Of a stretch of DNA of 41,577 bases, positions 14,277-38,221 are shown in pieces. The position numbers and the translations under genes are program-made. The stretch is from Bacillota bacterium. Lineage in GTDB: Bacteria; Bacillota; Clostridia; Acetivibrionales; JAFADI01. Numbering within the stretch: the first letter of the stretch is position 1; every line of letters begins with the position of its first letter. The notes below the pieces were generated by a model. It saw nothing but the letters and a program-made list of their open reading frames with translations. It was not told the DNA's origin and searched no databases. The DNA lies in the NCBI GenBank assembly GCA_023424965.1, contig JAFADI010000267.1, positions 1 to 41,577 on the forward strand, given 5' to 3'.

Positions 14277-14839
14277 AACGGATAAAAACGGAGAAAACGG
14301 CGCTGGTGGTCATCGACCTGCAGAAGGGAATTGTACACGGTGAGCGTGCTCCCCATACAGGTGCGCAGGTGGTTCGAAACGCAAGCAGGCTGGCGAAAGC
14401 ATTTAGTGACAGGGGAGCTTTTGTGGTCCTTGTCAGGGTATCATCGGCCGATGGAAAGGACATGCTAAAACCGGAGACGGATTTAAAAAGCAGCCCGGTA
14501 CACAGGCCCGAAGGCTGGGACAGCCTTGTGCCCGAGCTGGCGGAGATTAAAAATGCCCATGTCATTACCAAGAGGCAGTGGGGGGCGTTCTACGGCACCG
14601 ACTTGGATTTGCAGCTGCGCCGCCGGGGAATCGATACCATTGTACTGTGCGGCATTTCCACGTCCATCGGTGTGGACACTACGGCCAGAGAGGCCTACCA
14701 GCACGGGTACAACCAGATTTTTGCGGAAGATGCCATGACAGCTTTCTCAAAAGAAGAGCATGAGTATGTGTGCAAATACCTCTTCCCCAGGATCGGCAAA
14801 ATCCGGACAAGCGAAGAGGTGGTTTCGGCGCTGGAATAA
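14249..14839 (+). CDS. Isochorismatase-family cysteine hydrolase
   Basis: [10 protein letters not shown]...; [23 protein letters not shown] (catalytic Cys region). Overlaps the MFS gene by 28 nt. Confidence 0.85.
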
Positions 14840-14842
14840 AAG
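14795..14842 (+). repeat. Left copy of a 48-bp imperfect direct repeat (GGCAAAATCCGGACAAGCGAAGAGGTGGTTTCGGCGCTGGAATAAAAG), the native 3' end of the isochorismatase gene; right copy at 18547-18597
   Basis: Direct comparison of the two copies: ~85% identity over ~50 nt. The right copy is out of coding context. Confidence 0.6.
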
Positions 14843-14850
14843 ATGAAGCC

Positions 14851-14869
14851 AATATAACTTCACATTATA
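14851..14869 (-). repeat. Partial, inverted copy of the module-boundary repeat family (minus strand reads TATAATGTGAAGTTATATT, i.e. left end fused to right end)
   Basis: Identical 14-mer TATAATGTGAAGTT to copy A at 24268-24281. Confidence 0.4.
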
Positions 14870-18546: not shown

Positions 18547-18597
18547 GGCAAAATCCGCACATGCGAAGAGGTGGTTTCAGCGCCGGGATAGAAATGC
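18547..18597 (+). repeat. Right, degenerate copy of the isochorismatase 3'-end repeat (GGCAAAATCCGCACATGCGAAGAGGTGGTTTCAGCGCCGGGATAGAAATG), followed at 18598-18610 by a GTTTATATTCC motif resembling the right end of the boundary-repeat family
   Basis: Aligned to 14795-14842. Confidence 0.6.
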
Positions 18598-18653
18598 GTT
18601 TATATTCCGTTTAAATGAATGGTATATAATAATAGCAGGAGGTGATGTTTCCG

Positions 18654-24033: not shown

Positions 24034-24248
24034 TATAAAGGATACTGAAACGGCAGAGACTACCTGCTTGTTTCTCTTTTCCAGGCTTTCAATGCTGGTG
24101 AAGGATTCGGGCCTTTTAATCGGTATATTCCTTTCTCCATAGGAAGCAGCTCGCCATTTGGCCGACAAACTTCCAGCCAAACTGTTCGTAGGTGGATCTG
24201 TAATCTTTTTTCGGGAATGCCTGCATGTCATAAATATATCTGCATTTT

Positions 24249-24316
24249 CAAAATTTCAAGGACAAAATATAATGTGAAGTTCATTCTTCCAAACTGAAGC
24301 TCCGGGTATTTATAAT
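24249..24316 (+). repeat. Boundary-repeat family copy A: CAAAATT..N..TATAATGTGAAGTTC-N13-GAAGCTCCGGGTATTTATAAT
   Basis: Aligned to copies B (32623-32691) and C (36101-36175). Lies ~160 nt upstream of the LuxR/STAND regulator gene. Confidence 0.6.
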
Positions 24317-24473
24317 TCCTGTGCTGCTGAACGAGTGAGTAGTTATGTCTATTCTATTCACATGTTTGACTTGGGAGTTTTCACAATTGAGAGCAAGCAG
24401 CGGTTTGTGAAAAATACTTTACTCGATCTTTGATTTATGAGACTATTAAAATAGGAGTATTTTTATTGAAAAA

Positions 24474-27230
24474 ATGAAATGGCATGATAAGGAGCGGAGC
24501 CCGTTGAATAATAGCCTGAATGGCAAAGGTAATATTAAAATGCTGTCTGATAAATTCAACCAAAGTTCAATTGGAAGACAAATCGAAGTCCCTTTTTATA
24601 ATGCTCCATATACGAAATTTTTAGTTCCTGATTCCGCCACGCTGAAGGTGAATAGAGGAATATTCCATTTTGAGCTAAATGAAGCAGTGAAAAAGAAACT
24701 TATTATTATTACAGCTCCGGCGGGCTATGGGAAAAGTACGGCAGTGAGCAGTTGGATTTTACAGAATCAGGCCAGCCGAAGCTTTATATGGATTACTCTG
24801 GATAAGGATGACCGTGAAGAAAGCAATTTCTGGCATAATATCATATTCTCAATAAATCAAGATGAAAATATAATTTCCTATGATAAATTACTGTTGTTAT
24901 CGATAGAACAAAGTATAAACTTTTTAATTAATTATTTTTCTGAAATTTCTTCAGAATGCTTTATCATATTGGATGACTTTCACTATATCGATTGTGAACA
25001 AATCAATAGATCCTTCGGGTATTTTTTAGCCTATATGCCTAAGAACCTTCATTGCATTGTTATAAGCAGATCTTTTCCGTCCATATCATTATCAAAAATG
25101 ACGGTTGACGAGGATGTAACAACGTTTGATATTCGGGACCTTCAATTTTCCCATGAGGAAGCACGTACGTTCCTCAATGAAATAATGGATTTGAAACTAT
25201 CCGATGAGGATATAAAAACGTTGGAAACGAAGACCGAAGGTTGGATAGCCGCCCTGAAGGTTGCTGCCTTGTCCCTTAGGAATTGCTCCGATAAAAATGC
25301 CTTTATAAACAGCTTTGACAGCAGCAATAAAAAGATGTTTCAATATATTTTTGAAGAAGTGGTCAATTTTCAGGAAGCGGTTGTCAGAGAATTTTTGTTG
25401 AAAACCTCCATTTTAAAAAATCTGAATAAATCCATTTGCGACGCATTAACCGGTTGCAATAAATCCCAGGAGATATTGGAAATGCTTGAGGCGAACAATC
25501 TTTTCATCATCGGCCTGGACGAGAGAAAAGAAAATTACCGTTATGATCAACTATTGTCAGATATTCTTGTTAAACTGTTATTCAAGGAATATCCGGATCA
25601 GGTCCATGAAATATATTTGGCTGCCAGCCGATGGTGTGAGGACCATGGGTATCTTCGAGATGCTTTAGAATATTCCCTTGGCTCGGAAGATTCCCAAAAT
25701 ACATTGCTGTTGTTGGAAAAGTATTTTTCTACAAAGCATCCGGATATTTTAGGACCTAAAAAAATCTGTGATTGTTTTGGAGCCATACCCTGCGAAATGT
25801 ATAATAAGATGCCTGATTTATGTATTCGATACGCCTTAGCCCTGGCGGAAACAGGCCAGGTAAGCCTGGATGAGAAAGAATTGGCCGAGCGGGGAATAAA
25901 CTTGGATAGTGATGTTTGGGGAGGCTATAAAGGCCGGGTGAGTCAATTACGTGCCTATACCGCATTAAAATACGAAAATATCGTTGATGTTATCAGATAT
26001 TCCGAACAGGCAATGAACCAACTTCCCGGTGATATTTCGGGTGTTACCCCATGCCTTGTACTGGGATATATCTACAGGTCTCTTGGAGATATAGAAAAGG
26101 CTGAGTTCTATTTTGGAAATGCCGTACTTTTAAGCAAAGAAGTGAGCGATACCCGGCCTGGTGAGATTTTTGAGCCGCTCATTTTGAGCAACTTTTATAT
26201 GGCTTCGATTCAATACTTAAAAGGGGAATCGGATAATTTCATTACCCTTTTAAATCAAATACTGACCGAAAATATCACACATAAAAATTGTATGTATTTC
26301 TGCCTTGCTACCGCGTATTACGACGAAGGCGATTTCCGGCAGGCATATCCAAATGTAATGAAGGGTTTGGAATTGTGTAGTACATACGAGGACATCTTCT
26401 ATGAAAGAGTAAAAGGTTTTGTATTACTTGCAAGAATTTTGTTCCATACCGGTAAAAGTGCTGAAGCCATCAGTGTGATGAATGAGATAGACAGCTTGAT
26501 GAAGCCGGATTCAGGCAACCTGTTCATCCTGCTTGAATTGCCCAGGATTGTGAATCTTTTGGTTTCATTAGGGTTGATGGAGCGCGCAGAGGCCTATATT
26601 CATAAATTCAACAGCATTGATTGCAAGGAAATCAGGTTCACTATCTGTGAAGCTCAGGCAGAACTTTCCTTAGGAAAGAAAATGTATAAGGAAGCAGTCG
26701 ATATTCTGGAATTGATGATCTCAAACATGAATTTGGAGGTTTACCCCAAAAAAAGAATTGATTTGCTTGTATTAAGATCCATTGCACACAAGGCTTATAA
26801 CGAGAATGAGGAAGCATTGGCGTGTTTGCGAGAAGCACTGAAAACCAAGGGTGCAGAAAGGTATGCGAGGGCTTTTATTGATCGGGGCAAACCAATGCTT
26901 GATTTATTGGAAAAGTTCATCCTTCAGGCAGAAAAGAAGAAGGATATCCATTTGCTGAATATTGCGGAAAACCTGGTGAAAAGGCTTGAAAATAAAAATA
27001 GGCCCGCGTTGGCGGTACAGCATAGTGAGAGATTTGAACAGCTAAGCGAGAGAGAGCTGGAAGTACTCAGACTGTTGGCCGAGGGCTTAAGCTATGAAGA
27101 AATTGGAAAAGGACTTTACATTTCTCTAAGTACCGTAAAAAAACATACAGGTAACATCTATCACAAGCTGCAAGCGGATAACAAAATACAGGCAGTCAAT
27201 ATTGCCAAAGCAAATAAGCTGGTTGATTAA
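24474..27230 (+). CDS. LuxR/MalT-type STAND-NTPase transcriptional regulator (AAA-like NTPase + TPR-like helical repeats + C-terminal LuxR HTH), 918 aa
   Basis: Walker A ITAPAGYGKST; C-terminal LSERELEVLRLLAEGLSYEEIGKGLYISLSTVKKHTGNIYHKL (LuxR-type HTH). Start uncertain (ATG 24474; in-frame TTG 24504 after AAGGAG; ATG 24540). AT-rich gene. Confidence 0.85.
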   Translation: MKWHDKERSPLNNSLNGKGNIKMLSDKFNQSSIGRQIEVPFYNAPYTKFLVPDSATLKVNRGIFHFELNEAVKKKLIIITAPAGYGKSTAVSSWILQNQASRSFIWITLDKDDREESNFWHNIIFSINQDENIISYDKLLLLSIEQSINFLINYFSEISSECFIILDDFHYIDCEQINRSFGYFLAYMPKNLHCIVISRSFPSISLSKMTVDEDVTTFDIRDLQFSHEEARTFLNEIMDLKLSDEDIKTLETKTEGWIAALKVAALSLRNCSDKNAFINSFDSSNKKMFQYIFEEVVNFQEAVVREFLLKTSILKNLNKSICDALTGCNKSQEILEMLEANNLFIIGLDERKENYRYDQLLSDILVKLLFKEYPDQVHEIYLAASRWCEDHGYLRDALEYSLGSEDSQNTLLLLEKYFSTKHPDILGPKKICDCFGAIPCEMYNKMPDLCIRYALALAETGQVSLDEKELAERGINLDSDVWGGYKGRVSQLRAYTALKYENIVDVIRYSEQAMNQLPGDISGVTPCLVLGYIYRSLGDIEKAEFYFGNAVLLSKEVSDTRPGEIFEPLILSNFYMASIQYLKGESDNFITLLNQILTENITHKNCMYFCLATAYYDEGDFRQAYPNVMKGLELCSTYEDIFYERVKGFVLLARILFHTGKSAEAISVMNEIDSLMKPDSGNLFILLELPRIVNLLVSLGLMERAEAYIHKFNSIDCKEIRFTICEAQAELSLGKKMYKEAVDILELMISNMNLEVYPKKRIDLLVLRSIAHKAYNENEEALACLREALKTKGAERYARAFIDRGKPMLDLLEKFILQAEKKKDIHLLNIAENLVKRLENKNRPALAVQHSERFEQLSERELEVLRLLAEGLSYEEIGKGLYISLSTVKKHTGNIYHKLQADNKIQAVNIAKANKLVD

Positions 27231-27250
27231 TAATAGCAATTGGGTTTTCT

Positions 27251-27291
27251 ATCTGGCAGGTATACAAAAGTATACCTGCCGGATTTTTTTA
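27251..27291 (+). terminator. Rho-independent terminator (CTGGCAGGTATAC-aaaa-GTATACCTGCCGG + TTTTTTT)
   Basis: 13-bp stem (1 mismatch) followed by a 7-T run. Confidence 0.8.
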
Positions 27292-27365
27292 TCGAAAAGT
27301 AGAAGTATCCTTTCGGCCACTTACATATTCATGCCTCTCCTGATATGATCGGATTGAGCTCGAAA

Positions 27366-27382
27366 ATACCATACCGGGGTAT
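27366..27382. promoter_or_regulatory. Candidate CsoR operator ATACCATACCGGGGTAT (GC-rich pseudo-palindrome of the TACC-N-GGGGTA type) ~107 nt upstream of csoR
   Basis: Resembles the B. subtilis copZA CsoR-box pattern; arms ATACC/GGTAT. Confidence 0.35.
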
Positions 27383-27489
27383 CGTAACAGAAAAACGCAC
27401 TGACACATACCTGAAGCAAGCCATTGAACAAATAGGCTATTCCGTTACGGGCAGTATTGGAATGAATAGGACGGAGGGACGTGAAACAT

Positions 27490-27843
27490 ATGGAGGATAA
27501 CGCGGCAGGCTGTGAAAATTGCAGTATTTATGAAGCAAGTGAAGCAAATACGGGCGGATGCTATGATAGAACAACCAGTCGATCGCAGAAAACGAAGGCT
27601 TCGCTTCTGGTAAGACTTAGCCGCATTGAGGGGCAGGTCAGGGGCATTAAAGGAATGATTGAAAAAGATTGCTATTGTGATGATGTGCTGAATCAGATTA
27701 TTGCAGTGCAATCGGCAATGGATTCCGTAGGAATGCTATTAATGGAAAACCATATGAGGGGCTGTATTGTAAATCGTATACAAGCGGGAGAAATGGAAGT
27801 TGTGGATGAGCTTCTTTTAACCATTGGGAAATTATTAAAATAA
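27490..27843 (+). CDS. csoR: CsoR/RcnR-family metal-sensing transcriptional repressor (DUF156) with Cys-rich N-terminal extension
   Basis: LLVRLSRIEGQVRGIKGMIEKDCYCDDVLNQIIAVQSAMDSV has the conserved RxEGQ...C...H/C pattern. RBS GGAGGG 11 nt before ATG 27490. Confidence 0.8.
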   Translation: MEDNAAGCENCSIYEASEANTGGCYDRTTSRSQKTKASLLVRLSRIEGQVRGIKGMIEKDCYCDDVLNQIIAVQSAMDSVGMLLMENHMRGCIVNRIQAGEMEVVDELLLTIGKLLK

Positions 27844-27861
27844 GTATTTGGAGGGATTTGT

Positions 27862-28548
27862 ATGAAATTTAATAAGTTATTGGCAGCATTACTCTTAGGG
27901 GCAGCAGTATTTTCATTTTCCGGCTGTCAGGCGACAGACGTAGTAGCAAAAGTATCGGTCACTTCTTTTGACGAATTGGTTAAGGCAATGCCCGATCAAG
28001 TTATATATGATAATAAAAACGGGGGATGGGCCATCAGCGGCCCTGACAGTGAGGAAAGGTTAATTTTAAGCAAGGACTTCAGCAGTAATTATCCGGACAT
28101 GGTTTTAGAATTCAACGCAGAACCATTTTTGAAAGCGGGATTGGAGGTTGGAAAACTTCCGAAGGACCAATATCTCTATGATGAAACAACAGATAAAATA
28201 GCCATGCCTTTTGAATATGGACAGGATAAGTTTGGGGCAGTTACGGAAAAATCAGCAATTGATACATTCAAACAGATTGTCAGAACGCATAGGAATATAA
28301 TCAGCTACCATGAGGAAGGAGACCACTATAAGATCGATCTGGGCAAAGGCAATTTATTTGCCTGGGCGAAGGATTTAAACAGCAATAAAATGGATCTGCT
28401 GTTCATTCTGAATCCCAAACCGTTTATCGATGCAGGAGTAGATACGGGCAAAATCAAGGAATGGGTGTTTACAAAGTTACCGGTGACGGATAAGGAGGGG
28501 AAACCCGCAAAAGTTGATATACTTGTGAAAAGTTTCATGCTGAAATAG
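27862..28548 (+). CDS. Lipoprotein of unknown function with an internal tandem duplication
   Basis: Signal peptide + lipobox FSGC; two similar segments (LEFNAEPFLKAGLEVGKLPKDQY / FILNPKPFIDAGVDTGKIKEWVF). RBS GGAGGG. Confidence 0.75.
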   Translation: MKFNKLLAALLLGAAVFSFSGCQATDVVAKVSVTSFDELVKAMPDQVIYDNKNGGWAISGPDSEERLILSKDFSSNYPDMVLEFNAEPFLKAGLEVGKLPKDQYLYDETTDKIAMPFEYGQDKFGAVTEKSAIDTFKQIVRTHRNIISYHEEGDHYKIDLGKGNLFAWAKDLNSNKMDLLFILNPKPFIDAGVDTGKIKEWVFTKLPVTDKEGKPAKVDILVKSFMLK

Positions 28549-28618
28549 CGATGATCGGATAGCCGTGGAGCAAATGCTCCAGGGCTTCCCCGGATATGAG
28601 TGGAATGAGGTGTTTTAT

Positions 28619-29983
28619 ATGCAAGAACCCGGAAGCAAAAAAATACTGCGGATTGAAGGTATGGTGTGCGCAAGTTGTGAATCAAGGCTGGAGAGTGCCT
28701 TTAAGGAAATGGACGGTGTTTCGGAGGTGAAAGCAAGCCTTGCCGATGCTACGCTTGAAGTCACATACGATGCCGTAAAAACAACCCTGTCCGATATCAT
28801 CAAGACTGTAGAAGGAACGGGATATAACGCATTTGAAGCTCGCTGCACCCCGGAGTGTAAAAAGGGCCTGGATGAAAAAGCAAGGATGCAGACTCTAAAG
28901 CAGTTTATAGGTGCCGGTATCGTATTATGCGCTTTGTATCTGGTTATTTCAAAGACCATGGACTATAATTTCATGCCCAATATCGATCAGTCCATGGGAT
29001 ATGGCATATTGTTTGTTGTGGGCCTGTTTACATCAATTCACTGCATAGCAATGTGCGGTGGGATAAACCTTTCGCAATGTATGGTTTATACGCACTCCGA
29101 TGAAGGCAGATATGCCCGGCTAAAGCCGGGTCTTTTATACAATGCGGGCAGGATGATTTCCTACTCTGCCATTGGGGGTATTGTGGGTGCGCTTGGATCC
29201 GTATTGAGCTTTACGGGCATGATGCGGGGCATTGTAGCTGCTTTTGCCGGCATATTCATGATGATCATGGGCTTGAACCTGCTGGACATTTTTCCGTGGT
29301 TGAAAAAAATTAATCCAAGGCTGCCAAAAAGGTTCAGAAATGAAAGGCTTAACGGGAAAGGTCATTACGGACCTTTTTATGTAGGACTACTCAATGGACT
29401 TATGCCATGTGGCCCGCTCCAGGCCATGCAGCTTTATGCGTTAGGCACGGGGAATGCCTTAATGGGAGCAATATCCATGTTCATGTTCAGCGCAGGAACG
29501 GTACCGTTGATGTTCGGGTTCAGTGTTTTAAGTTTAACCATGAGCGGAAAATTCAACAGGACACTCATGAAAGTCAGCGCGCTTCTGGTTGTTATTTTAG
29601 GGATTATTATGCTGGGAAGAGGCTTAAGTCTTTCCGGGATCGCAATGCCTGAGTTTGGCAATTCGGGACCGGAGATGGTACAGTACGCGGAGGTGGCAGG
29701 AAATGTACAAATGGTTTCTATTGATGTCAAGGCGAAAAAATATGCGCCCATTGTGGTTCAGAAGGGCATACCCGTCCATTTTATAATAAATGCCAAACCC
29801 TCGGATTTAAATTCATGCAACGGTATTATCGCCATACCAAAGTATGATATAGAGAAAACACTTCAGCCGGGAGAAAACGTAATTGAATTTGTTCCACAGG
29901 AAATTGGAGATATTCCATACTCCTGCAAAATGGGCATGATAAAAAGCAAAATCAGGGTAGTGGATGATGTTGAAAAGCGGTGA
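28619..29983 (+). CDS. Heavy-metal-associated (HMA) domain membrane protein with DsbD_2/CcdA-like TM core and C-terminal cupredoxin-like domain
   Basis: HMA motif GMVCASCESRLE; TM motifs HCIAMCGG and MPCGPLQAM; C-terminal beta-rich domain with SCKMGM. RBS GAGGTG 7 nt before ATG 28619. Confidence 0.8.
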   Translation: MQEPGSKKILRIEGMVCASCESRLESAFKEMDGVSEVKASLADATLEVTYDAVKTTLSDIIKTVEGTGYNAFEARCTPECKKGLDEKARMQTLKQFIGAGIVLCALYLVISKTMDYNFMPNIDQSMGYGILFVVGLFTSIHCIAMCGGINLSQCMVYTHSDEGRYARLKPGLLYNAGRMISYSAIGGIVGALGSVLSFTGMMRGIVAAFAGIFMMIMGLNLLDIFPWLKKINPRLPKRFRNERLNGKGHYGPFYVGLLNGLMPCGPLQAMQLYALGTGNALMGAISMFMFSAGTVPLMFGFSVLSLTMSGKFNRTLMKVSALLVVILGIIMLGRGLSLSGIAMPEFGNSGPEMVQYAEVAGNVQMVSIDVKAKKYAPIVVQKGIPVHFIINAKPSDLNSCNGIIAIPKYDIEKTLQPGENVIEFVPQEIGDIPYSCKMGMIKSKIRVVDDVEKR

Positions 29984-30055
29984 GCATGGAGTGGTTAAAG
30001 TGATTTGCGTATTTTCATACAGCTGAGACGTAGGAATAATCATTCCAAAATCCTA

Positions 30056-30084
30056 TTGACAATTCTATTTATTGCCATTAAAAT
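30056..30084 (+). promoter_or_regulatory. Sigma-A-like promoter TTGACA-17-TAAAAT for the ECF-S/aminotransferase operon
   Basis: Hexamers and 17-nt spacing read directly. Confidence 0.5.
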
Positions 30085-30094
30085 ACTTCTAATT

Positions 30095-30126
30095 TATCGA
30101 TACACTATCAAAACGTATCGATACAC
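30095..30126. promoter_or_regulatory. Two operator-like palindromes (TTATCGATACAC and perfect 10-bp GTATCGATAC), centres 21 bp apart, in the 5' leader between promoter and RBS
   Basis: Read directly; two-helical-turn spacing suggests a dimeric repressor site. Confidence 0.4.
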
Positions 30127-30153
30127 ATTTGGAATGACTGAAGGAGTATTGCA

Positions 30154-30711
30154 ATGGAAAGTCAATCGGTTTCGCTTCAACGCTTCAAAATTCAAATGAA
30201 TACAAAAGACATGGTTGTCACAGGACTGCTGACGGCGCTGGTCTTTATAGCCACGAGATTTATCAACCTGAGGCTTCCCATCTCTGTTAACGGTGGGTTG
30301 ATTCACTTTGGGAATGTGGCTTTGTTCCTGTCCGCTATCGTATTTGGAAAAAGGAAGGGCGCAGTTGCCGGAGCTTTTGGAATGGGAGTGTTCGACGTTC
30401 TGTCAGGATGGCTTGTGTGGGCGCCCTTTACCTTTGTGATCCGGGGTGTGATGGGCTACATCATCGGAGCAATTTCGAATGCAAACGGGAAAAACGGGAA
30501 CAGTACATTTTACAATGGAATTTCGGTGCTGGCCGGAAGCCTCTGGATGATTACCGGATATTATCTGGCGGAAGTGATGCTATATGGAAACTGGCTTTCG
30601 CCTCTCACATCGGTGCCCGGCAACATAGCTCAAATAATACTGGGGCTGGCTGTGGGACTGCCCATGGCAGCCATGCTGAAAAGAAGCAAAGCCATCAGCA
30701 GCAGAATATAA
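30154..30711 (+). CDS. ECF-transporter substrate-specific (S) component, substrate unknown
   Basis: ~185-aa 5-6 TM protein with the typical S-component pattern (LTALVFIATRFINLRLP..., GLIHFGNVALFLSAIVFG). RBS AAGGAG 7 nt before the ATG. Confidence 0.7.
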   Translation: MESQSVSLQRFKIQMNTKDMVVTGLLTALVFIATRFINLRLPISVNGGLIHFGNVALFLSAIVFGKRKGAVAGAFGMGVFDVLSGWLVWAPFTFVIRGVMGYIIGAISNANGKNGNSTFYNGISVLAGSLWMITGYYLAEVMLYGNWLSPLTSVPGNIAQIILGLAVGLPMAAMLKRSKAISSRI

Positions 30712-31854
30712 ATGAAGAAAGGTATATCGAAGATGAAGAACGCCTTGATCATGACACCCGGTCCCACCTGCATCCATGAGTCTGTCAGAAGGGCGATGTC
30801 CGCCGAGATCACAAACCCCGATCTGGATGAAGGTTTCTATGAATTCTACAAAGATACGTGCAGTAAGCTCAAAGAAATTATGAAGACCCAAAATGATGTG
30901 CTGATTTTGTCAGGAGAGGGAATCCTGGGGCTCGAAGCGGCATGCGCTTCACTGATTGAGCCCGGCGACCGGATCTTGTGCATTGACAATGGGATCTTTG
31001 GGAATGGTTTCGGCGATTTTGCAAAAATGTATGGCGGTGAAGTGGTCTATTTTAAATCCGATTATAGGAAAGCCGTTGATGCTGAAGATTTAGAGGAGTT
31101 TTTAAAAGAGAACGGCAGCTTCAAAATCGCTACGCTGGTTCACTGCGAGACTCCCTCCGGTATAACAAATCCGGTAAAAGACATTTGCCCCATTTTAAAA
31201 AAATATGGGATCCTTTCCGTTGTGGATTCGGTGTCTGCAATCGGAGGCGAACCGCTGGAAACGGATCATTGGGGGATGGACATTGTTCTGGGAGGATCGC
31301 AGAAGTGCCTGTCCGCCCCTCCGGGTCTGACCTTTTTGAGCATCAGCCCCAAAGCCTGGGATTTAATTCTCAATAGACACACACCCATCACGGGCTTTTA
31401 CTGCAACCTTTCCCATTGGAAACACTGGTATGAGGAGAAATGGTTTCCTTACACCCAGCCCGTAAGCGATATATGTGGTCTTAGCGCGGCTGCCGGCAGA
31501 CTTCTGGAGGAGGGGGGAGCCGTTTCAAGACATGAAAGAATGGCTGAAGCCGTCAGGGAGGCCCTCACAAAATCCGGCCTGGAGCTGTACCCGTTGAATG
31601 GCTTTGCAAATACGGTAACCACTGTTTGTATTCCGGAAGGAATCAGCTTCAGGGACATCTACGAAGGGATGCTGAAGTCCCACCATATAATGATTGCAGG
31701 GGCTTTTGGCTTTCTGAAAGACAAGGTTTTCCGAATCGGCCATATGGGGGAGAACTGCCGTGAGGAAAAGCTTTATTTGACGCTGAAAGCGTTAAATGAT
31801 GTGTTGAAGGCGCTTGGTGTAAACTTAAGCGGAAAGCTGCATGCGAACTTTTAA
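30712..31854 (+). CDS. Class V pyridoxal-phosphate aminotransferase (serine-pyruvate/alanine-glyoxylate/AEP-pyruvate type)
   Basis: MTPGPT start, ...VDSVSAIGG... and PLP-lysine context GGSQKCLSAPPG. ATG abuts the upstream stop; ATG 30733 is an alternative start. Confidence 0.85.
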   Translation: MKKGISKMKNALIMTPGPTCIHESVRRAMSAEITNPDLDEGFYEFYKDTCSKLKEIMKTQNDVLILSGEGILGLEAACASLIEPGDRILCIDNGIFGNGFGDFAKMYGGEVVYFKSDYRKAVDAEDLEEFLKENGSFKIATLVHCETPSGITNPVKDICPILKKYGILSVVDSVSAIGGEPLETDHWGMDIVLGGSQKCLSAPPGLTFLSISPKAWDLILNRHTPITGFYCNLSHWKHWYEEKWFPYTQPVSDICGLSAAAGRLLEEGGAVSRHERMAEAVREALTKSGLELYPLNGFANTVTTVCIPEGISFRDIYEGMLKSHHIMIAGAFGFLKDKVFRIGHMGENCREEKLYLTLKALNDVLKALGVNLSGKLHANF

Positions 31855-32000
31855 AGGGGGCAGGAGTTTGTGACAGGGGACGGTTCCTTGACACGCTGGA
31901 CTGACTGCTGGTGGATTGTTGAGAGGCGTCCTCTTTCATCTAAACAATAACAAGTAATCTGTGGGGTCACTAATCAAGGTTTTGGGTCTTGATAACGATC

Positions 32001-32164
32001 CCTATTTTTGTTTTCTTTTTTTAGGATATGGTCTTATCTTTAAATCTTCAATTTTAGGTTCTGCTTCTCCTGTTTCCAGTCTGGAAAATTTTCTTTGTGT
32101 CGTATTAAAAATTTTTGCAAGTGCTTCCTGCGTTAGCCTAGGTTCTATTTCTTCCCGTAGTCAT
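32001..32164 (-). pseudogene. Frameshifted XRE-family (Cro/C1-type) HTH regulator remnant
   Basis: Minus strand: ATG at 32164 gives MTTGRNRT*; the -1 frame continues ...EEIEPRLTQEALAKIFNTTQRKFSRLETGEAEPKIEDLKI..., a canonical XRE helix-turn-helix, with no in-frame start. Confidence 0.45.
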
Positions 32165-32277
32165 TTTAGACGATTGTCGTCTAAAAATCAATAGACGATG
32201 ATCGCCTGAGGTATGATAGCAATGGGTGATCATATGGAGCGGTATGAAATTATTCGGGGACGATGAGGTGAAGCAGG

Positions 32278-32451
32278 ATGGAAAATAAAATTTGTAAGAA
32301 TTGCAGGCATTTCAGACAACATTATATTAAGTTCGGGAGAAGCTACCGGGAAATCACGTATGGGCATTGTGTGTATCCAAGGTTAAAAAAGAGAGAATCC
32401 GACACTTTGGCATGCCAACACTATAAAGAACGCCACAGGGAGTCTCCATAA
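32278..32451 (+). CDS. Unannotated 57-aa basic Cys/His-rich protein MENKICKNCRHFRQHYIKFGRSYREITYGHCVYPRLKKRESDTLACQHYKERHRESP (putative zinc ribbon)
   Basis: ORF below the 60-aa track cutoff; GAGGTG RBS 7 nt before the ATG; CxxC ... HC ... C spacing. Confidence 0.45.
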   Translation: MENKICKNCRHFRQHYIKFGRSYREITYGHCVYPRLKKRESDTLACQHYKERHRESP

Positions 32452-32622
32452 AGCCCTCCGCTGGAATCAACGCCGTCATCAGCCAATGGATGTTCTTGAC
32501 CTACTCGCTTCCACAGCGGTGTTCTTTGTGTATGGTCGGAGAAAAACAGGTAAAGAAGAAAGTAAAATGCATCGATGGATAGGGTATCTGCCGGTGTCTT
32601 TTAGTCAAATTTTTGTTCAATA

Positions 32623-32691
32623 TCAAAATTTTGAGGATAAATTATAATGCGAAGTTCATTTTAACAAATTCAAGTTCCGAGCATTTATATT
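32623..32691 (+). repeat. Boundary-repeat family copy B: TCAAAATT..N..TATAATGCGAAGTTC-N14-AAGTTCCGAGCATTTATATT
   Basis: Aligned to copies A and C. Sits between the degraded XRE/Cys-ORF region and the 3' end of the TetR gene. Confidence 0.6.
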
Positions 32692-32756
32692 TTGTACAGC
32701 AAAAGAGTCCGATTAAATAATTTTAGTCGCAAATTGCTGGAAGAAAACAGATATGA

Positions 32757-33356
32757 TCAATTGCTTATAACAATCTGGTTGTACAAATCGATACCCTTTT
32801 CGGTTAGGTTAAAATACAGGATACTCCAGACGATATTTAAAAGTTCATCATGTTGTTCAGTCGCATCCGATGAAATTTGTTGTATCCATGACATCATCAA
32901 CAACACGATTCCATTTGCCAAATATTTTCGTAGTTTTTCATTTGGAGATACCCTGAATATTTCTTTCTTTTCAAAGTTTTCAATGATTTGGCTAAAGTGC
33001 ATAATAAGCATTTTTCTTACCTTTGATTGAAACTCCGATATTTCATGATAGTTTTTTCGCAATTCAATCATATTACTGAAATAGAAATAGTATTTCTTTT
33101 GAAATAGTAGCATCGTTTCCAACTGCTCATTAAAATCCATTATACTAACATCAGATTTTAAATCTAAAGATTTAAAATCTTCATATTGAAGTTCAACAAC
33201 AGCGCGGATCAAATCGGACTTTTTTTTATAGTGATAGGTAATATTCCCTACGCTCTTATTGGTTGCATCGGCAATATCGCGCATAGAGACCGCGACATAC
33301 CCATTTTGGTTAAACAATTCAATTGCTTTTTGCAAAATTATCTTTTTAGTCGTCAT
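32757..33356 (-). CDS. TetR/AcrR-family transcriptional repressor
   Basis: N-terminal HTH ILQKAIELFNQNGYVAVSMRDIADATNKSVGNITYHY; RBS GGAGAAA before ATG 33356 (track ORF is N-terminally over-extended). Confidence 0.85.
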   Translation of the reverse strand: MTTKKIILQKAIELFNQNGYVAVSMRDIADATNKSVGNITYHYKKKSDLIRAVVELQYEDFKSLDLKSDVSIMDFNEQLETMLLFQKKYYFYFSNMIELRKNYHEISEFQSKVRKMLIMHFSQIIENFEKKEIFRVSPNEKLRKYLANGIVLLMMSWIQQISSDATEQHDELLNIVWSILYFNLTEKGIDLYNQIVISN

Positions 33357-33409
33357 GATATTTCTCCAAAAATAAATTTTCCATATAGAGCATATCACAC
33401 TTGATTATT

Positions 33410-33457
33410 TAGTACAAGTGTACTAAAATAAAAATACAAACTAGTACGAACGTACTA
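33410..33457. promoter_or_regulatory. Two perfect 16-bp palindromic operators TAGTACAAGTGTACTA (33410-33425) and TAGTACGAACGTACTA (33442-33457) in the TetR/hydrolase divergent promoter region
   Basis: Perfect inverted repeats read directly. The second abuts the TATAAT -10 of the hydrolase operon. Confidence 0.6.
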
Positions 33458-33482
33458 ATTATAATCTGAGGAGGTCACGATA

Positions 33483-34550
33483 ATGAAACCGGATCAACAG
33501 GAAATTAATGCAACAATTCGGACCCTTCCCATTGACAGGGCTATTCCAAATGGTCTTGACGTAAATGATTTTGTTGTACTCATGCAGGAATTTGAAAAGG
33601 GAGGTGACTACGCTGATATTTGTGAAAATTTAGGTGACAATTGGCGGGCATTGGCTGATAAGGCTATAAAGCAGGAACATTTCATGACTGGAAGAACTTT
33701 TTACCTTAATGCAGTTGCAGCATACAGAGTCGGACAATACACGATTATTCCGGATAATGACAAAAAACTGGGCATGTATAGAAAGCTGATTGACTGTTAT
33801 CGTGAGGCTGCAAAGCTGTACAATCCGCAAATTGAAAGAATTGAAGTGCCTTACAAGGGTGGCAGGATGGTCGGGTGGTTAAGAATGCCTCCGAATACGG
33901 AGGGAAAAGTTCCGGTAGTCATTTCTATCGGCGGTGCTGACGGATGGCGCGAAGAACATCACAACTACAGCAGCTATTATGCAGAAAGAGGACTCGCGTA
34001 TCTTATGATAGACGGGCCGGGTCAGGGTGAAACAAGGCTGTTTAACAAGATGTATATGGAACTGAATAACGAAGAAGCTTTGAATGAAATTGTTGAATAT
34101 GTATCAATGGATAACAGATTTAGTAAAATAGGTATGATCGGATACAGTTTTGGGGGGTATTTGGTTGCAAGGACAGCAGCCGTCAGTAAGAAACTGGATG
34201 CTTGTGTCATCAATGGAGGATCCTATACTCCAAAAGAGATAATTAGTTTTATTCCTCATTTCAGCAGGGTCTTTTCCGCGCTGTCAAACAAGAAAGATAA
34301 TGAATTGGAGGAGTTCATTGACAATATGACGATGGAAGGGCATGCACAAAATATTACTTGTTCACTTTTAGTAAACCATGGGATACCTGATCCCTTGTTC
34401 AGAGCTGAAGGAGTTGAAAGAATATACAAGGAAGCCGGATCAACTGATAAAATATTAAAACTCTGGAAAGACGGCAATCATTGTGTCACAAACCATGCAA
34501 CCGAAACAATAACCCTGGTTACGGATTTCTTTATGGATAGATTGAAATAG
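33483..34550 (+). CDS. Alpha/beta hydrolase (FrsA/DHPON-hydrolase-like family), paralog 1
   Basis: IDGPGQGE motif, nucleophile elbow GYSFGG; RBS GAGGAGG. Confidence 0.8.
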   Translation: MKPDQQEINATIRTLPIDRAIPNGLDVNDFVVLMQEFEKGGDYADICENLGDNWRALADKAIKQEHFMTGRTFYLNAVAAYRVGQYTIIPDNDKKLGMYRKLIDCYREAAKLYNPQIERIEVPYKGGRMVGWLRMPPNTEGKVPVVISIGGADGWREEHHNYSSYYAERGLAYLMIDGPGQGETRLFNKMYMELNNEEALNEIVEYVSMDNRFSKIGMIGYSFGGYLVARTAAVSKKLDACVINGGSYTPKEIISFIPHFSRVFSALSNKKDNELEEFIDNMTMEGHAQNITCSLLVNHGIPDPLFRAEGVERIYKEAGSTDKILKLWKDGNHCVTNHATETITLVTDFFMDRLK

Positions 34551-34582
34551 TATGTGTATATCTGACTTGTGGAGGGAGATCA

Positions 34583-35698
34583 ATGGTTAATTTAACTTTA
34601 AAAGAGAAATTTGCGTTTAAGTTTATTTTTAATGAGGGAAGAGTCTATCACAGGTGGTATGGAAGATTCTTATCTTTCGGAATAGATTATGGGAGATTAA
34701 GGAGGGTGGTAGCAAGAGTGCCAAATTGGCTGCAATGGTGTAATCAATGGACCAAAGAAGGAGATGGACTTTTTGAGAAGGCTGAAAAAGCATTAAACGA
34801 AGGAAATAAATTAAAAGCGCGGGCGTTATTCCATGAAGCTGTGGGCTGTTATCATACCGGGCAGCATGTGTTTTTTATTGACAGCAGTCAAAAGGAAGAA
34901 ACCCAGGGAAAAGCGAGAATAAGCTATCAAAGAGCAATAAGCCTTTACGATGAAAAGGAAAGACCCATACGAATTGAAGTTCCGTTTCATGGTGTGAAAA
35001 TTCCGGGATATTTGAGGCTTTCCACTGTGTCCAACAGCCCCCTTATTATATTTGTAAACGGGATGGATAATATTAAAGAGGCTGAGGGTAATTCCCAGGG
35101 AACTTTATTTAAACAGAATGGTTTTAACTATTTTACGTTTGATGGACCGGGTCAGGGCGAAATGTGGAAGGATATGAAATTCGATGTGAAGGAATATCAT
35201 AAGGCAGTATCCACAATTATTGACTGGTTTGAACAACATCAGACATACGGAATTGATATGGAGAGAATCGGCCTTACAGGTTTTAGTCTGGGTGGATATC
35301 TGGCCCCGATGTGTGCAGCACATGACAAGCGGGTAAAATGTGTGGTTGGAAATAGTGGGCTTGTATTTATAGGTGGATTAAATGGGTTAAAGAAGCTTAA
35401 CCCGTTATGGCAGCGTGGGGCCACATATATGACCGGATGTGAGACGCTTGAACAGGCTGTTGATCAATTTGATTGGGATATTGAACAGGAGCCAAGCTTA
35501 AAGGTGCCTTTACTATTCTATCATGCAGGGAGAGATGAGGTTATGCCTGCGCCCAAACTGCATGCGGACAAGGTAATGAGATGGGCAAAGGGAGAAAAGA
35601 CGCTGAAATATTATGAGCAAGCAGAACACTGTACTCAGGATTATCTGGATGAGGTGTTTCCGGAAATTATTGATTGGTTTAAGAAAAAACTCATATGA
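34583..35698 (+). CDS. Alpha/beta hydrolase (same family), paralog 2
   Basis: FDGPGQGE and GFSLGG; shares global architecture with 33483-34550; RBS GGAGGGA. Confidence 0.8.
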   Translation: MVNLTLKEKFAFKFIFNEGRVYHRWYGRFLSFGIDYGRLRRVVARVPNWLQWCNQWTKEGDGLFEKAEKALNEGNKLKARALFHEAVGCYHTGQHVFFIDSSQKEETQGKARISYQRAISLYDEKERPIRIEVPFHGVKIPGYLRLSTVSNSPLIIFVNGMDNIKEAEGNSQGTLFKQNGFNYFTFDGPGQGEMWKDMKFDVKEYHKAVSTIIDWFEQHQTYGIDMERIGLTGFSLGGYLAPMCAAHDKRVKCVVGNSGLVFIGGLNGLKKLNPLWQRGATYMTGCETLEQAVDQFDWDIEQEPSLKVPLLFYHAGRDEVMPAPKLHADKVMRWAKGEKTLKYYEQAEHCTQDYLDEVFPEIIDWFKKKLI

Positions 35699-36036
35699 TT
35701 TCGCATGAATTGAAGAATGCATAAAAAAGCGATATGTTTATTTGTGATATTTCAATATTAATCCTGATTATGAAGGTAGAAAAATGCCCAATCCAAATGT
35801 ATTGGTTGAACTCGGTTATGCAGCAAAAACAATAGGATGGGAAAAATAACATGTACCTCAATATAATTTCGATATCGAAAATGAAAAACAAAGTGTTGCA
35901 AATGGATTAGCTGAAGCAATTAAACTAATGTATAGGAGGGGCCTTCTATTTAATCCATTAAAAGATTATATGAAAGGAAAAATTGATTATTGTATATTAG
36001 GTATCCTAAAACAAATTTACTGCATGCACGAACCAT

Positions 36037-36175
36037 TGGGTAAATTTTAGTTAGGCTAATGATGCGAACTTAGAGATCAATTCAAATTCTAGAGCGTATC
36101 CCCAAAATTAAAAATTAGGTTCAATTATAACGCGAAGTTACCCGGAATTTTTTCAAGTTCCGGGTAGTTATATTT
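36037..36175 (+). repeat. Tandem pair of boundary-repeat copies: degenerate C' (36037-36096) and full C (36101-36175)
   Basis: C' is AAATTTTAGTTAGGCTAATGATGCGAACTTAGAGATCAATTCAAATTCTAGAG. C is CCAAAATT..TATAACGCGAAGTTACCCGGAATTTTTTCAAGTTCCGGGTAGTTATATT. C is internally dyad-symmetric (TATAAC/GTTATA; ACCCGG/CCGGGT). Confidence 0.55.
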
Positions 36176-36197
36176 GTGCCGCTGTGGGCATAGTATA

Positions 36198-36226
36198 TTG
36201 ACATGCATAGAACCTCTAGGTATAAT
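36198..36226 (+). promoter_or_regulatory. Consensus sigma-A promoter TTGACA-17-TATAAT for padR
   Basis: Read directly, 36 nt upstream of the padR start. Confidence 0.55.
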
Positions 36227-36262
36227 AATACATAGAAGTATTAGGTATGGTGGGAGGATTGA

Positions 36263-36595
36263 ATGAATGTATCGAAAGACTTGGTAGCTGCCTCTGCGAC
36301 CCCTCTCATTTTGGCCATTCTCAAGGAATGTGACAGTTATGGCTATGCAATTATCAAGCGTGTGAAAGAGATGTCCGAGAATCAACTGATCTGGACGGAA
36401 GGTATGTTGTATCCGGTATTGCATCGTCTGGAAGAACAGCTGTTAATTGAGTCTTACTGGAATAAATCGGAGGGTGGCCGGCAGCGTAAATATTACAGGA
36501 TTAAAGAGAGCGGGTTAGCCGAGCTGGAACTGCAAAAGAAGCAGTGGGAAATGGTTCATAATGCTCTTGCAAAGACATGGAATGAAAAAAAGTAA
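36263..36595 (+). CDS. PadR-family transcriptional regulator
   Basis: LILAILKECDSYGYAIIKRVKEMSENQLIWTEGMLYPVLHRLEEQLLIESYW is the PadR winged-HTH signature. Confidence 0.9.
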   Translation: MNVSKDLVAASATPLILAILKECDSYGYAIIKRVKEMSENQLIWTEGMLYPVLHRLEEQLLIESYWNKSEGGRQRKYYRIKESGLAELELQKKQWEMVHNALAKTWNEKK

Positions 36596-36613
36596 TTCGT
36601 AAGGGGGAGCAAG

Positions 36614-37969
36614 ATGTTTGATTTGGAAGCACAGATTCATTCGTGGAGCGATCATTTAAGGGCTCATGGCAATTTAAGCGATGCCGATATTCAGGAATTG
36701 GAGAATCATTTGCGGGACGAAATCGAGGACTTAATTGCAGCCGGACTCACGCCGGATGAAGCGTTTTTGATCAGTGTCAAACGTTTAGGAAATGTAAGTG
36801 CGATCTCACATGAGTTTGCCAAAGTAAATACCGAGAACCTGTGGAGACATTTACTGGTAGAGCCGGCAGATTCACCGGCCAAGCAGCAAAACCGGCGCGA
36901 TGTTGCCCTGGTGGTGATTTTTGCGCTGCTCGCCGGAACACTGTTTAAAATTACTGAACTTTTCGGTTTGAGGTTTTTTGATCAGGCCGCGGAAAGATTC
37001 TTCATTAAAAATTTGAGCTTGTTTATTTTGCCTTTTATAGCGGCATTTTTCTTAGTCAAGAGGAAAGCAGAGCTGAAAACATGGGCAACGACACTGGGGA
37101 TTTTCATCCTGGCGGCGCTGATTGTCAATGTGTACCCGTCCTTTGCTCCTTACCATACGGAATATCTTACTGGCTTTCACCTTCCTTTGTTTTTGTGGCT
37201 GGTCGTCGGAGCAGCTTACATAGGCAGGGAGTGGCAAGGCAGCCAGGGCAGGCTGAATTTTATACGTTTCACAGGTGAAGCCGCGATCTACGGTGCATTA
37301 GTAATGGCAGGAATATTTGTGTTGGGCATGTTCACGATGGTTATTTTCCAGGCCATCCAAATTGACGCCGGAAAATTTCTTGAAGAGTATTTACTGATTT
37401 ACGGAGGGTGTGCGGCAGCCATGATAACTGTTTATTTAGTGGAGGCCAAGAAAAGTGTGGTGGAGAACTTTGCACCCATTTTGGCCAAAATATTCAGCCC
37501 GCTTTTCCTGATAATTATGGCTGCTTTCTTAATCGTTATGATTGTCACGGGTAATAGTCCGTTTATGGAAAGAGATTTCCTGATTGGTTTCGATTTTATG
37601 CTGGCTTTAGTGCTGGGGTTGGTTTTGTATGTCATTTCGGCGCGGGATAGCCGCCAGCCGGCCAACCTGTTTGATTACTTGAATCTTGCCTTGATCCTTA
37701 TGGCACTGGTTATCGACGGGATTGCTTTATCGGCCATACTTTTCCGCCTGTCCGCCTTTGGCATCACCCCCAATAAGCTGGCCGCGCTGGGGGAGAACTT
37801 GGCTTTGCTGGGCAACCTGGCCGGACTTGCCTGGTTATATATCGGGTATTTCAAAAAGAAATCTGATTTCACCAAGCTAATAAAATGGCAGACAGAGTAT
37901 CTCTATGTTTATTTCATTTGGACAGCAATTGTGGCATTCGTATTTCCGGTTATTTTTAAGTTTATTTAA
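36614..37969 (+). CDS. PadR-associated polytopic membrane protein (N-terminal soluble helical segment + ~10 TM)
   Basis: Immediately downstream of padR with RBS GGGGGAG; many hydrophobic segments. Confidence 0.8.
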   Translation: MFDLEAQIHSWSDHLRAHGNLSDADIQELENHLRDEIEDLIAAGLTPDEAFLISVKRLGNVSAISHEFAKVNTENLWRHLLVEPADSPAKQQNRRDVALVVIFALLAGTLFKITELFGLRFFDQAAERFFIKNLSLFILPFIAAFFLVKRKAELKTWATTLGIFILAALIVNVYPSFAPYHTEYLTGFHLPLFLWLVVGAAYIGREWQGSQGRLNFIRFTGEAAIYGALVMAGIFVLGMFTMVIFQAIQIDAGKFLEEYLLIYGGCAAAMITVYLVEAKKSVVENFAPILAKIFSPLFLIIMAAFLIVMIVTGNSPFMERDFLIGFDFMLALVLGLVLYVISARDSRQPANLFDYLNLALILMALVIDGIALSAILFRLSAFGITPNKLAALGENLALLGNLAGLAWLYIGYFKKKSDFTKLIKWQTEYLYVYFIWTAIVAFVFPVIFKFI

Positions 37970-38221
37970 TTCCTTGCAGGGGCATCAGGAGAGAAGGAGC
38001 GCTGGTGAGTCAAACAACATTTTTGGCGGTGCCAGTTGGTTGTTTTCATATGGAGTTCCATATAATTGCAACATGAAAGAAACTTGTAGGGTTCCTTTTT
38101 AGCAAGGAATTTCCCTTCGGATAAATTTGCCGTTTCATAGTCCTGCTGGTATAATTATACTTATATTACCATCCGTTGGATAGGTAATCCAATAATACAT
38201 CCAAAAATCCAGGAGAACTGC

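Follow-up and report, generated by a model that had tools for sequence, protein, structure and literature searches.

Short intergenic repeats of the Correia (CREE), ERIC, BOX and bcr1 types have inverted repeats at their termini, target duplications or stable stem-loops, and in many strains they number tens to hundreds per genome. Class II activator-dependent promoters with phased direct repeats include those built on the pho box of PhoB, the SARP heptads, the MalT boxes and the 9-12-9 sites of LytTR. A further class, the putative mobile promoters (PMPs), comprises homologous non-coding stretches of 50–100 nt, at least 80% identical, that lie upstream of non-homologous genes, have upstream neighbours that are also non-homologous, and occur both within and between genomes; it is an operational class with no defined mechanism, and was delimited in the interval −150..−50 (Matus-Garcia, Nijveen & van Passel 2012, PMC3488235). 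Here we describe a non-coding element of roughly 50–85 bp that occurs in three co-oriented full copies (A, B and C) in a 41,577-nt stretch of DNA, hereafter the window (contig JAFADI010000267.1 of the Bacillota assembly GCA_023424965.1), and once on a JGI metagenome contig (L008), which brings the known full copies to four. The repeat family is real, far beyond chance, and we tentatively read it as a portable promoter/operator module.

Compared with the PMPs, two pairs of copies (A and B, identical at 40 of the 50 core positions, and B and L008, at 43 of 50) have the required length of at least 50 nt and identity of at least 80% together with unrelated neighbours. Unlike PMPs, copy B has no downstream gene, the pairs that contain C fall below 80% identity (62–72%), and copy A stands further from its start codon than the interval used in the PMP study. 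The boxes GAAGTTC (box 1) and (C/G)AAGYTCC (box 2) are direct repeats 20 bp apart and, as in class II activator-dependent promoters, a recognisable −10 and a poor −35 are accompanied by asymmetric direct repeats helically phased near or over the −35. The repeat period of 20 bp compares with 11 bp for PhoB and SARP or 21 bp for LytTR, and the geometry fits none of them exactly. As in SARP sites, box 2 ends 7 nt before the −10. Box 1 (GAAGTTCAT) agrees at eight of nine positions with the LytTR consensus; as a LytTR promoter the element has a spacer of 11 nt and not 12, and its proximal repeat lies between the −35 and the −10 instead of just upstream of the −35. No LytTR or SARP gene is present in the window, and none of the window proteins was found to have a LytTR domain. 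The MalT-like gene next to the element is preceded by another conserved motif.

The element also shares properties with sites of recombination and with dispersed repeats. Like integron attC sites and the pdif sites of Xer recombination, the copies are short and imperfectly symmetric and lie between unrelated accessory modules. The preliminary description of this DNA, made from the letters of the sequence, had put forward the attC comparison, which does not hold: unlike attC, the family has no conserved fold, no core sites and no integrase among the genes checked. Unlike pdif modules, in which the sites alternate, the copies are co-oriented, and a dif match is confined to one of them. With Correia/CREE, ERIC, BOX and bcr1 the element has in common that these are short intergenic repeats able to carry promoters and to mark rearrangement points, while their inverted repeats, duplications, family-wide stem-loops and high copy number are not seen here.

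A repeat family with blocks at fixed spacing

The window comes from an uncultured, Desulfosporosinus-like Firmicute whose genome was assembled from a metagenome. The nearest relatives of the window proteins belong to Desulfosporosinus and the Desulfitobacteriaceae, and ENA scaffolds 463 kb and 259 kb long carry the window sequence too. Every copy was recovered by an nhmmer profile built from the remaining copies and searched for the omitted one (leave-one-out E 1e-7 to 1e-16; Table 1), and nothing else in the window came close, which establishes the family. The three co-oriented full copies of the preliminary description are thus upheld at the places it gave, with exact matches to TATAAYGYGAAGTT and to AAGYTCCGRG-N3-TTATA in A, B and C. 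All copies share an ungapped core of 50 nt, TATAAYGYGAAGTT-N15-AAGYTCC-N6-TTATAWTT, which can be read in blocks as TATAAY GYG AAGTT, a 15-nt spacer, AAGYTCC, 6 nt and TTATAWTT (in copy A, TATAATGTGAAGTT-N15-AAGCTCC-N6-TTATAATT). The ranges of spacing in the earlier consensus are too wide: in all four known copies 15 nt, no more and no fewer, separate GAAGTT from AAGYTCC, and 6 nt precede TTATA. Any two cores agree at 31 to 43 of their 50 positions (62–86%). Copies A and B are alike beyond the core as well (77% identity over 86 nt, 24232–24317 versus 32607–32692), the left extension of A (24232–24267) being common to both. The copy on L008, from another organism, is nearer to B than A or C are, and the module would therefore be older than this locus and would have been reused.

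Conservation among the four copies is concentrated in the blocks, with invariant columns at 12 of 14 positions in TATAAYGYGAAGTT, 9 of 12 around AAGYTCC-G and 7 of 8 in TTATAWTT. The spacer between boxes 1 and 2 varies in all 13 of its columns at constant length, and the 50-nt core is free of indels. Fixed spacing combined with a free spacer is the pattern of spaced protein contacts on duplex DNA. Box 1 is in addition near-palindromic (GCGAAGTTCGC in L008, TGAAGTTCA in A).

At its right end the core has a −10 hexamer of sigma-A type, TATAAT or TATATT, in which A2 and T6 are intact in four of four copies. It is accompanied by no good −35; the −35-like sequences TTCCAA, TTAACA and TTATCA, read directly from A, B and L008, lie 18–19 nt upstream. 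Rightward transcription is predicted, with starts near 24323 (A), 32698 (B) and 36181 (C), so placed that the two direct AAGYTC boxes, 20 bp or two helical turns apart, would lie at about −46 and −26 and TATAAY at about −55. Three of the four full copies are co-oriented with unrelated genes and stand upstream of a start codon by 88–157 nt; the gene downstream of the L008 copy, at a distance of 92 nt, is an unrelated 336-aa open reading frame (ORF). A putative DNA-binding protein on the phased boxes would control rightward transcription into whatever gene lies downstream, and copies would have been reused before unrelated accessory genes (the LuxR-STAND/copper module, the padR-permease pair and, in another organism, a further gene). 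That the element acts as a promoter, that it has a protein partner, and whether control is by activation or repression are matters of inference. Sites for Rex, CcpA, CodY, Fur/PerR, LexA, Spo0A, CsoR and PhoP, compared by eye, were rejected as none fitted all copies, and the same was found for sigma-H/E/K/F/G and ECF promoters compared in the same way.

Copies that lose their gene would be expected to decay, and copy B is such an orphan. No co-oriented gene comes next to it, and the stop codon of a convergent tetR gene lies 65 nt downstream. In a sister strain (L059, 98.6% nucleotide identity) copy B has suffered a 59-bp deletion (window 32606–32664 versus L059 860–872) that removes the left extension, TATAAT and box 1. 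The deletion is bordered by CAAATT direct repeats inside longer imperfect repeats (TTTTAGTCAAATT / TTTTAACAAATT). Copy C is kept in the same strain with two single-nucleotide differences, both outside the invariant blocks. Since B has no downstream co-oriented gene and has lost its left half in the sister strain, it is dispensable and decaying.

Beyond the window, a pattern scan of metagenome contigs returned one real copy (L008) and one chance match (L007), so that the count of dispersed copies is one extra full copy from the JGI metagenomes. About 55 kb of the source genome was read for copies in all, and a profile search of the ~43 kb of it that make up the rest of the window and its flanks found no further copy. 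No full copy occurs in 185,579 reference genomes, one per species (a strict pattern had no matches and a looser one 26 chance matches); three patterns applied to IMG/VR viral contigs gave chance matches only, and distant-mode BLAST with copy B against plasmid and phage records gave nothing above noise. When the conceptual translation of the element was compared with 5.8 billion proteins, no spurious ORFs called across other copies were found. With four full copies, none of them in the reference genomes, the general impact of the element is limited unless complete genomes of the lineage hold many more.

Table 1. Positions of the element copies and of related features (window coordinates unless a contig is named)
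Feature	Position	Strand	Remarks
Copy A	24232–24317	+	Core 24268–24317; E 4.5e-11 by model built without A
Copy B	32607–32692	+	Core 32643–32692; E 6.5e-16 by model built without B
Copy C	36101–36183	+	Core 36126–36175; E 1.4e-7 by model built without C
L008 copy	L008:109–158		1.3-kb JGI metagenome contig; found by pattern scan
Partial copy	14851–14869	−	Exact TATAATGTGAAGTT then ATATT; weak by profile, E 0.5–7
C-specific hairpin ACCCGGAA...TTCCGGGT	36139–36166	+	C spacer complementary to box 2
Upstream box TGCGAACTTAGAGATCAATTC	36061–36085	+	Inside the tract earlier called C′; also upstream of the L008 copy
padR-permease block in relatives	L009 3161–4941; L016 9579–11366; L058 5576–7375		

Fold and recombination-site tests

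Each copy had been thought able to form an imperfect hairpin. Folding of each 61-nt copy as RNA, on both strands and against shuffles, limits this to C, which alone folds stably (−20.7 kcal/mol, z = −5.4); for A, B and L008 both strands are indistinguishable from shuffles (z −0.8 to +0.7). The C hairpin looks terminator-like and is not a feature of the family, C being the single copy flagged in an intrinsic-terminator test (36136–36169). All copies have just one dyad in common, 5-bp and invariant (TATAA/TTATA), and it is uninformative as to pairing. No covariation was found (RNAalifold −0.9 kcal/mol, with a positive covariation term), and the dyad originally proposed is paired in 64% of cells, its inner stem in 47%, neither above shuffles, so that conserved pairing, the test that had been suggested for it, is missing. 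Rfam 15 gave no match at the gathering score, and at E<=1 around each copy it gave a lone spurious Dictyostelium RNA (E 0.18). The hairpin, attC and structured-RNA ideas are not supported.

The ends of the element, TATAAY ... TTATAWT, contain no attC core sites (RYYYAAC/GTTRRRY). The window genes that were scanned and the flanking loci hold no integrase or recombinase gene and yielded no Phage_integrase domain. Terminal inverted repeats are absent beyond the 5-bp TATAA/TTATA, and there are no target-site duplications in the flanks of A (…GTCAT / CCTGT…) or B (…TAGTC / TGTAC…); together with the absence of full copies from the reference genomes, this tells against the likeness to a MITE or REP element that had been raised. 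REP elements are palindromes of 20–40 nt with a conserved 5′ tetranucleotide, and their Y1 transposase (RAYT) gene is flanked by copies; here no conserved palindrome was detected, and no copy lies within 1 kb on either side of the nearest Y1_Tnp gene. That gene (L001 15727–16656, minus strand) is located ~400 nt past the right end of the window and ~5.8 kb beyond C. Its 309-aa product has an IS200-like Y1 domain (Pfam E 6e-12) that is restricted to the N-terminus and followed by a long extension; the sister-strain gene is called at 162 aa.

A dif site of Xer recombination has XerC and XerD arms of 11 bp, with ATAA and TTAT innermost, on either side of a 6–8 bp centre. Similarity to it was measured with a position weight matrix (PWM) from 14 Firmicutes dif sites (PMC3025954 supplement), and the published B. 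subtilis and Peptococcaceae dif sequences were confirmed. The right half of copy B is the top dif-like 28-mer in the window, at 15.6 bits versus 36–45 for true dif. An arms-only model that allowed centres of 5–9 nt and ranked 83,102 positions placed B at rank 4, C at 2302 and A at 5761. The inner ATAA/TTAT positions, the most conserved of dif, are absent from the family. A dif/Xer site was rejected as a family property, the likeness being limited to B in both models.

Promoter module, relic and other readings

That the copies are a portable promoter/operator module, read by a protein as duplex DNA and forming a small lineage-restricted family, is the account we prefer, although it is to be taken as possible and as still short of probable. 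Of the promoter, leader and small-RNA interpretations allowed for in the preliminary description, the promoter is the best fit to the anatomy, and the small RNA is unsupported, with no counterpart in Rfam. Several observations weigh against a promoter module. The −35 regions match poorly and would be separated from the −10 by 18–19 nt; box 2 lies between the −35 and the −10, which is unusual for an activator; the gene after C already has a perfect promoter and its own operators; and B has no gene to serve. Further, the LuxR-STAND and padR orthologues in relatives work without the element, no candidate regulator could be linked with it (the conserved intergenic motif of the LuxR-STAND neighbour is another one), and orientation statistics are meaningless at n=4 with most window genes on the plus strand. 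Should the promoter-module reading be true, it would be a tractable case of regulatory DNA reused before horizontally acquired genes in an uncultured relative of sulfate reducers, and the box architecture TATAAY / GAAGTT / AAGYTCC / TATAWT at fixed spacing could serve to fish out the binding protein.

A rival account is that the copies are relics of a mobile or rearranging element, a transposon or insertion sequence (IS) end or an att-type site, left at module junctions, mostly non-functional and decaying. Every copy lies in a long junction full of gene remnants, C ends 13–21 nt from the sharp left edge of a block known in four contexts, a partial copy stands at the edge of an adhE-kinase segment that is itself flanked by a 47-nt duplication, and B has its 59-bp deletion in the sister strain. 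The core is moreover an imperfect dyad with unequal half-site spacing, and the right half of B scores best of all 28-mers against dif. Yet no recombinase or transposase gene adjoins any copy and the nearest Y1_Tnp gene is unflanked, conservation is lowest in the centre, where crossover would take place, the dif likeness stays with B, and the family was not found in the reference genomes, plasmids and phages searched. With copies only 62–86% identical and no target-site duplications, we regard a relic as unlikely, if deserving of serious consideration; if it is true, the element marks points of module exchange in this island. More doubtful again is neutral local duplication, by which segments of a single ancestral intergenic region would have been spread within this island through illegitimate or homologous recombination and would now serve no function. 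The presence of three copies within 12 kb and none in the other ~43 kb read, and the deletion under way in one copy, would agree with it. Block-wise invariance around a free spacer of fixed length argues instead for constraint, and the foreign copy, before another gene, is more like B than the local copies are like each other, which is not expected from recent local duplication.

The remaining accounts are much less probable. If the left TATAAY box drove a small RNA or 5′ leader, the conserved blocks would act in the RNA; this account draws on the left side of copy A, where TTTTCA-17-TATAAT agrees with the promoter consensus at 10 of 12 positions, and on the hairpin and T-rich tail of C, which resemble a terminator. 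However, the left hexamer of C is TATAAC, without the critical final T, which makes the left box the poorer −10 candidate; no conservation is seen in the −35 or in any small ORF, and with neither a conserved fold nor an Rfam match we consider this account improbable. It would be similarly improbable that the copies are landing pads or junction sites of an undescribed module-exchange system of uncultured Desulfitobacteriaceae, in which a trans-encoded recombinase would read the double-stranded 50-bp core as two unequal half-sites around a variable centre and insert or swap promoter-bearing modules immediately to the right; if so, these would be integron-like arrays with neither an adjacent integrase nor a folded attC. 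Least probable of all is an integron-attC-like or REP/MITE-like site acting as folded single-stranded DNA. The cassette-like position at junctions, the TATAA/TTATA ends and the strong hairpin in C had made it attractive, but it is largely refuted: the hairpin belongs to C only, pairing is not above shuffles and does not covary, R''/R' core sites, terminal inverted repeats and target-site duplications are all missing, there is no intI among the genes checked, and neither the 185,579 genomes nor IMG/VR hold a full copy.

Junctions, neighbouring modules and partial copies

The GC content of the window changes from ~50–55% (1–24 kb) to ~36–45% (24–41 kb), and the step falls exactly at copy A, where it goes from ~50% to ~36–40%; the window to the right of this point has the look of a mosaic accessory island of lower GC. 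Long non-coding junctions (~610 nt for A, ~900 for B and ~565 for C) hold the copies, each near the right end of its own, and contain gene debris, such as the degraded XRE-type HTH gene on the minus strand to the left of B (32000–32460; Pfam HTH_31, E 7e-4). The same junction contains an intact-looking 57-aa cysteine-rich ORF (32278–32451) with no family match. Copy A stands 157 nt upstream of the LuxR-STAND gene (24474), and the right end of copy C 13–21 nt to the left of the padR-permease block. The claim that the copies lie between functionally unrelated modules was confirmed, as the neighbouring modules are unrelated and independently portable.

The padR gene and a 451-aa 'permease prefix' gene make up a sharply bounded block of 1.78 kb (36197–37975) that is 87–92% identical in three other genomes (Table 1) and so occurs in four contexts with entirely different flanks. 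The block starts exactly at its own perfect TTGACA-17-TATAAT promoter (36198–36226), in which the operators ACATAGAA...TAGGTAT occur in duplicate, and reaches a few nt beyond the stop codon, with no flanking repeats. The pair is a mobile two-gene cassette with no visible mobility mechanism. The relatives keep the promoter and operators, the DNA to their left is unrelated, and the element is not present there. A 'partial copy' in L009 (AATAACGCGAAGTTC) was rejected: the stretch is homologous to an L058 segment that does not resemble the element, and the match is thus probably due to chance. The idea of a serine-recombinase gene whose tail would be this L009/L058 stretch was not borne out by Pfam and was dropped.

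The LuxR-STAND/CsoR/copper block recurs in two other contexts at 69–71% nucleotide identity, and its MalT-like STAND regulator is consistently linked to the CsoR/copper module. The LuxR-STAND orthologues (60–63% amino acid identity) keep this synteny, and the element was not found upstream of them. Since no relative carries the element upstream of the shared modules, it is not their cognate regulatory region and belongs to the recipient DNA of this lineage. The intergenic region between the LuxR-STAND gene and csoR (27231–27489) is conserved in three distant genomes (compare L028 12698–12924 and L029 12659–12852) and includes a terminator hairpin GGCAGGTATACAAAAGTATACCTGCC, a conserved TATCCTTTCGGNCACTTAC and a CsoR-type operator AAAATACCATACNGGGGTATCG. 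In L028, two 9-mers at 9938–9975, within the 100 nt upstream of the LuxR-STAND orthologue, recall box 2 and the left box in reversed order (TCAAGTTACGGAG and TATAATGCGG); they need two mismatches, fail the profile test and are probably chance.

C′, a tract to the left of C that had been described as a degenerate copy, is not detected by the family profile. It contains a conserved box, TGCGAACTT, 68 nt upstream of the C core and 67 nt upstream of the L008 core, and this box is the near-palindromic box 1 (GCGAA-S-TT) in inverted form. As every profile misses C′ and the box is common to C and L008, C′ is a conserved upstream box of the C/L008 subtype and not a degenerate full copy.

The inverted partial copy fared better. 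Its exact 14-mer TATAATGTGAAGTT (minus strand, 14856–14869) is real and significant on its own, with an estimated ~1e-3 such chance matches expected in the window, and because ATATT follows directly the partial copy may be an internally deleted relic of the element. It lies 3–17 nt past the stop codon of an isochorismatase gene, at the left edge of the adhE-kinase segment. The right-end-like motif at 18598–18610 that had been paired with it was detected by no search. A 47-nt stretch of the isochorismatase 3′ end, including the stop codon, is duplicated at 14795–14841 and 18547–18593 with 87% identity and brackets the 3.7-kb segment of adhE and an APH-like kinase gene. This duplication on both sides suggests that the segment came in, by insertion or exchange, through recombination inside an isochorismatase gene.

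The gene 3′ of the L008 copy (L008 258–1268) has no Pfam match. Its predicted product carries an R-x4-H motif (RNKVIH) and C-terminal CxxC pairs, a putative likeness reminiscent of HEPN-type defence proteins.

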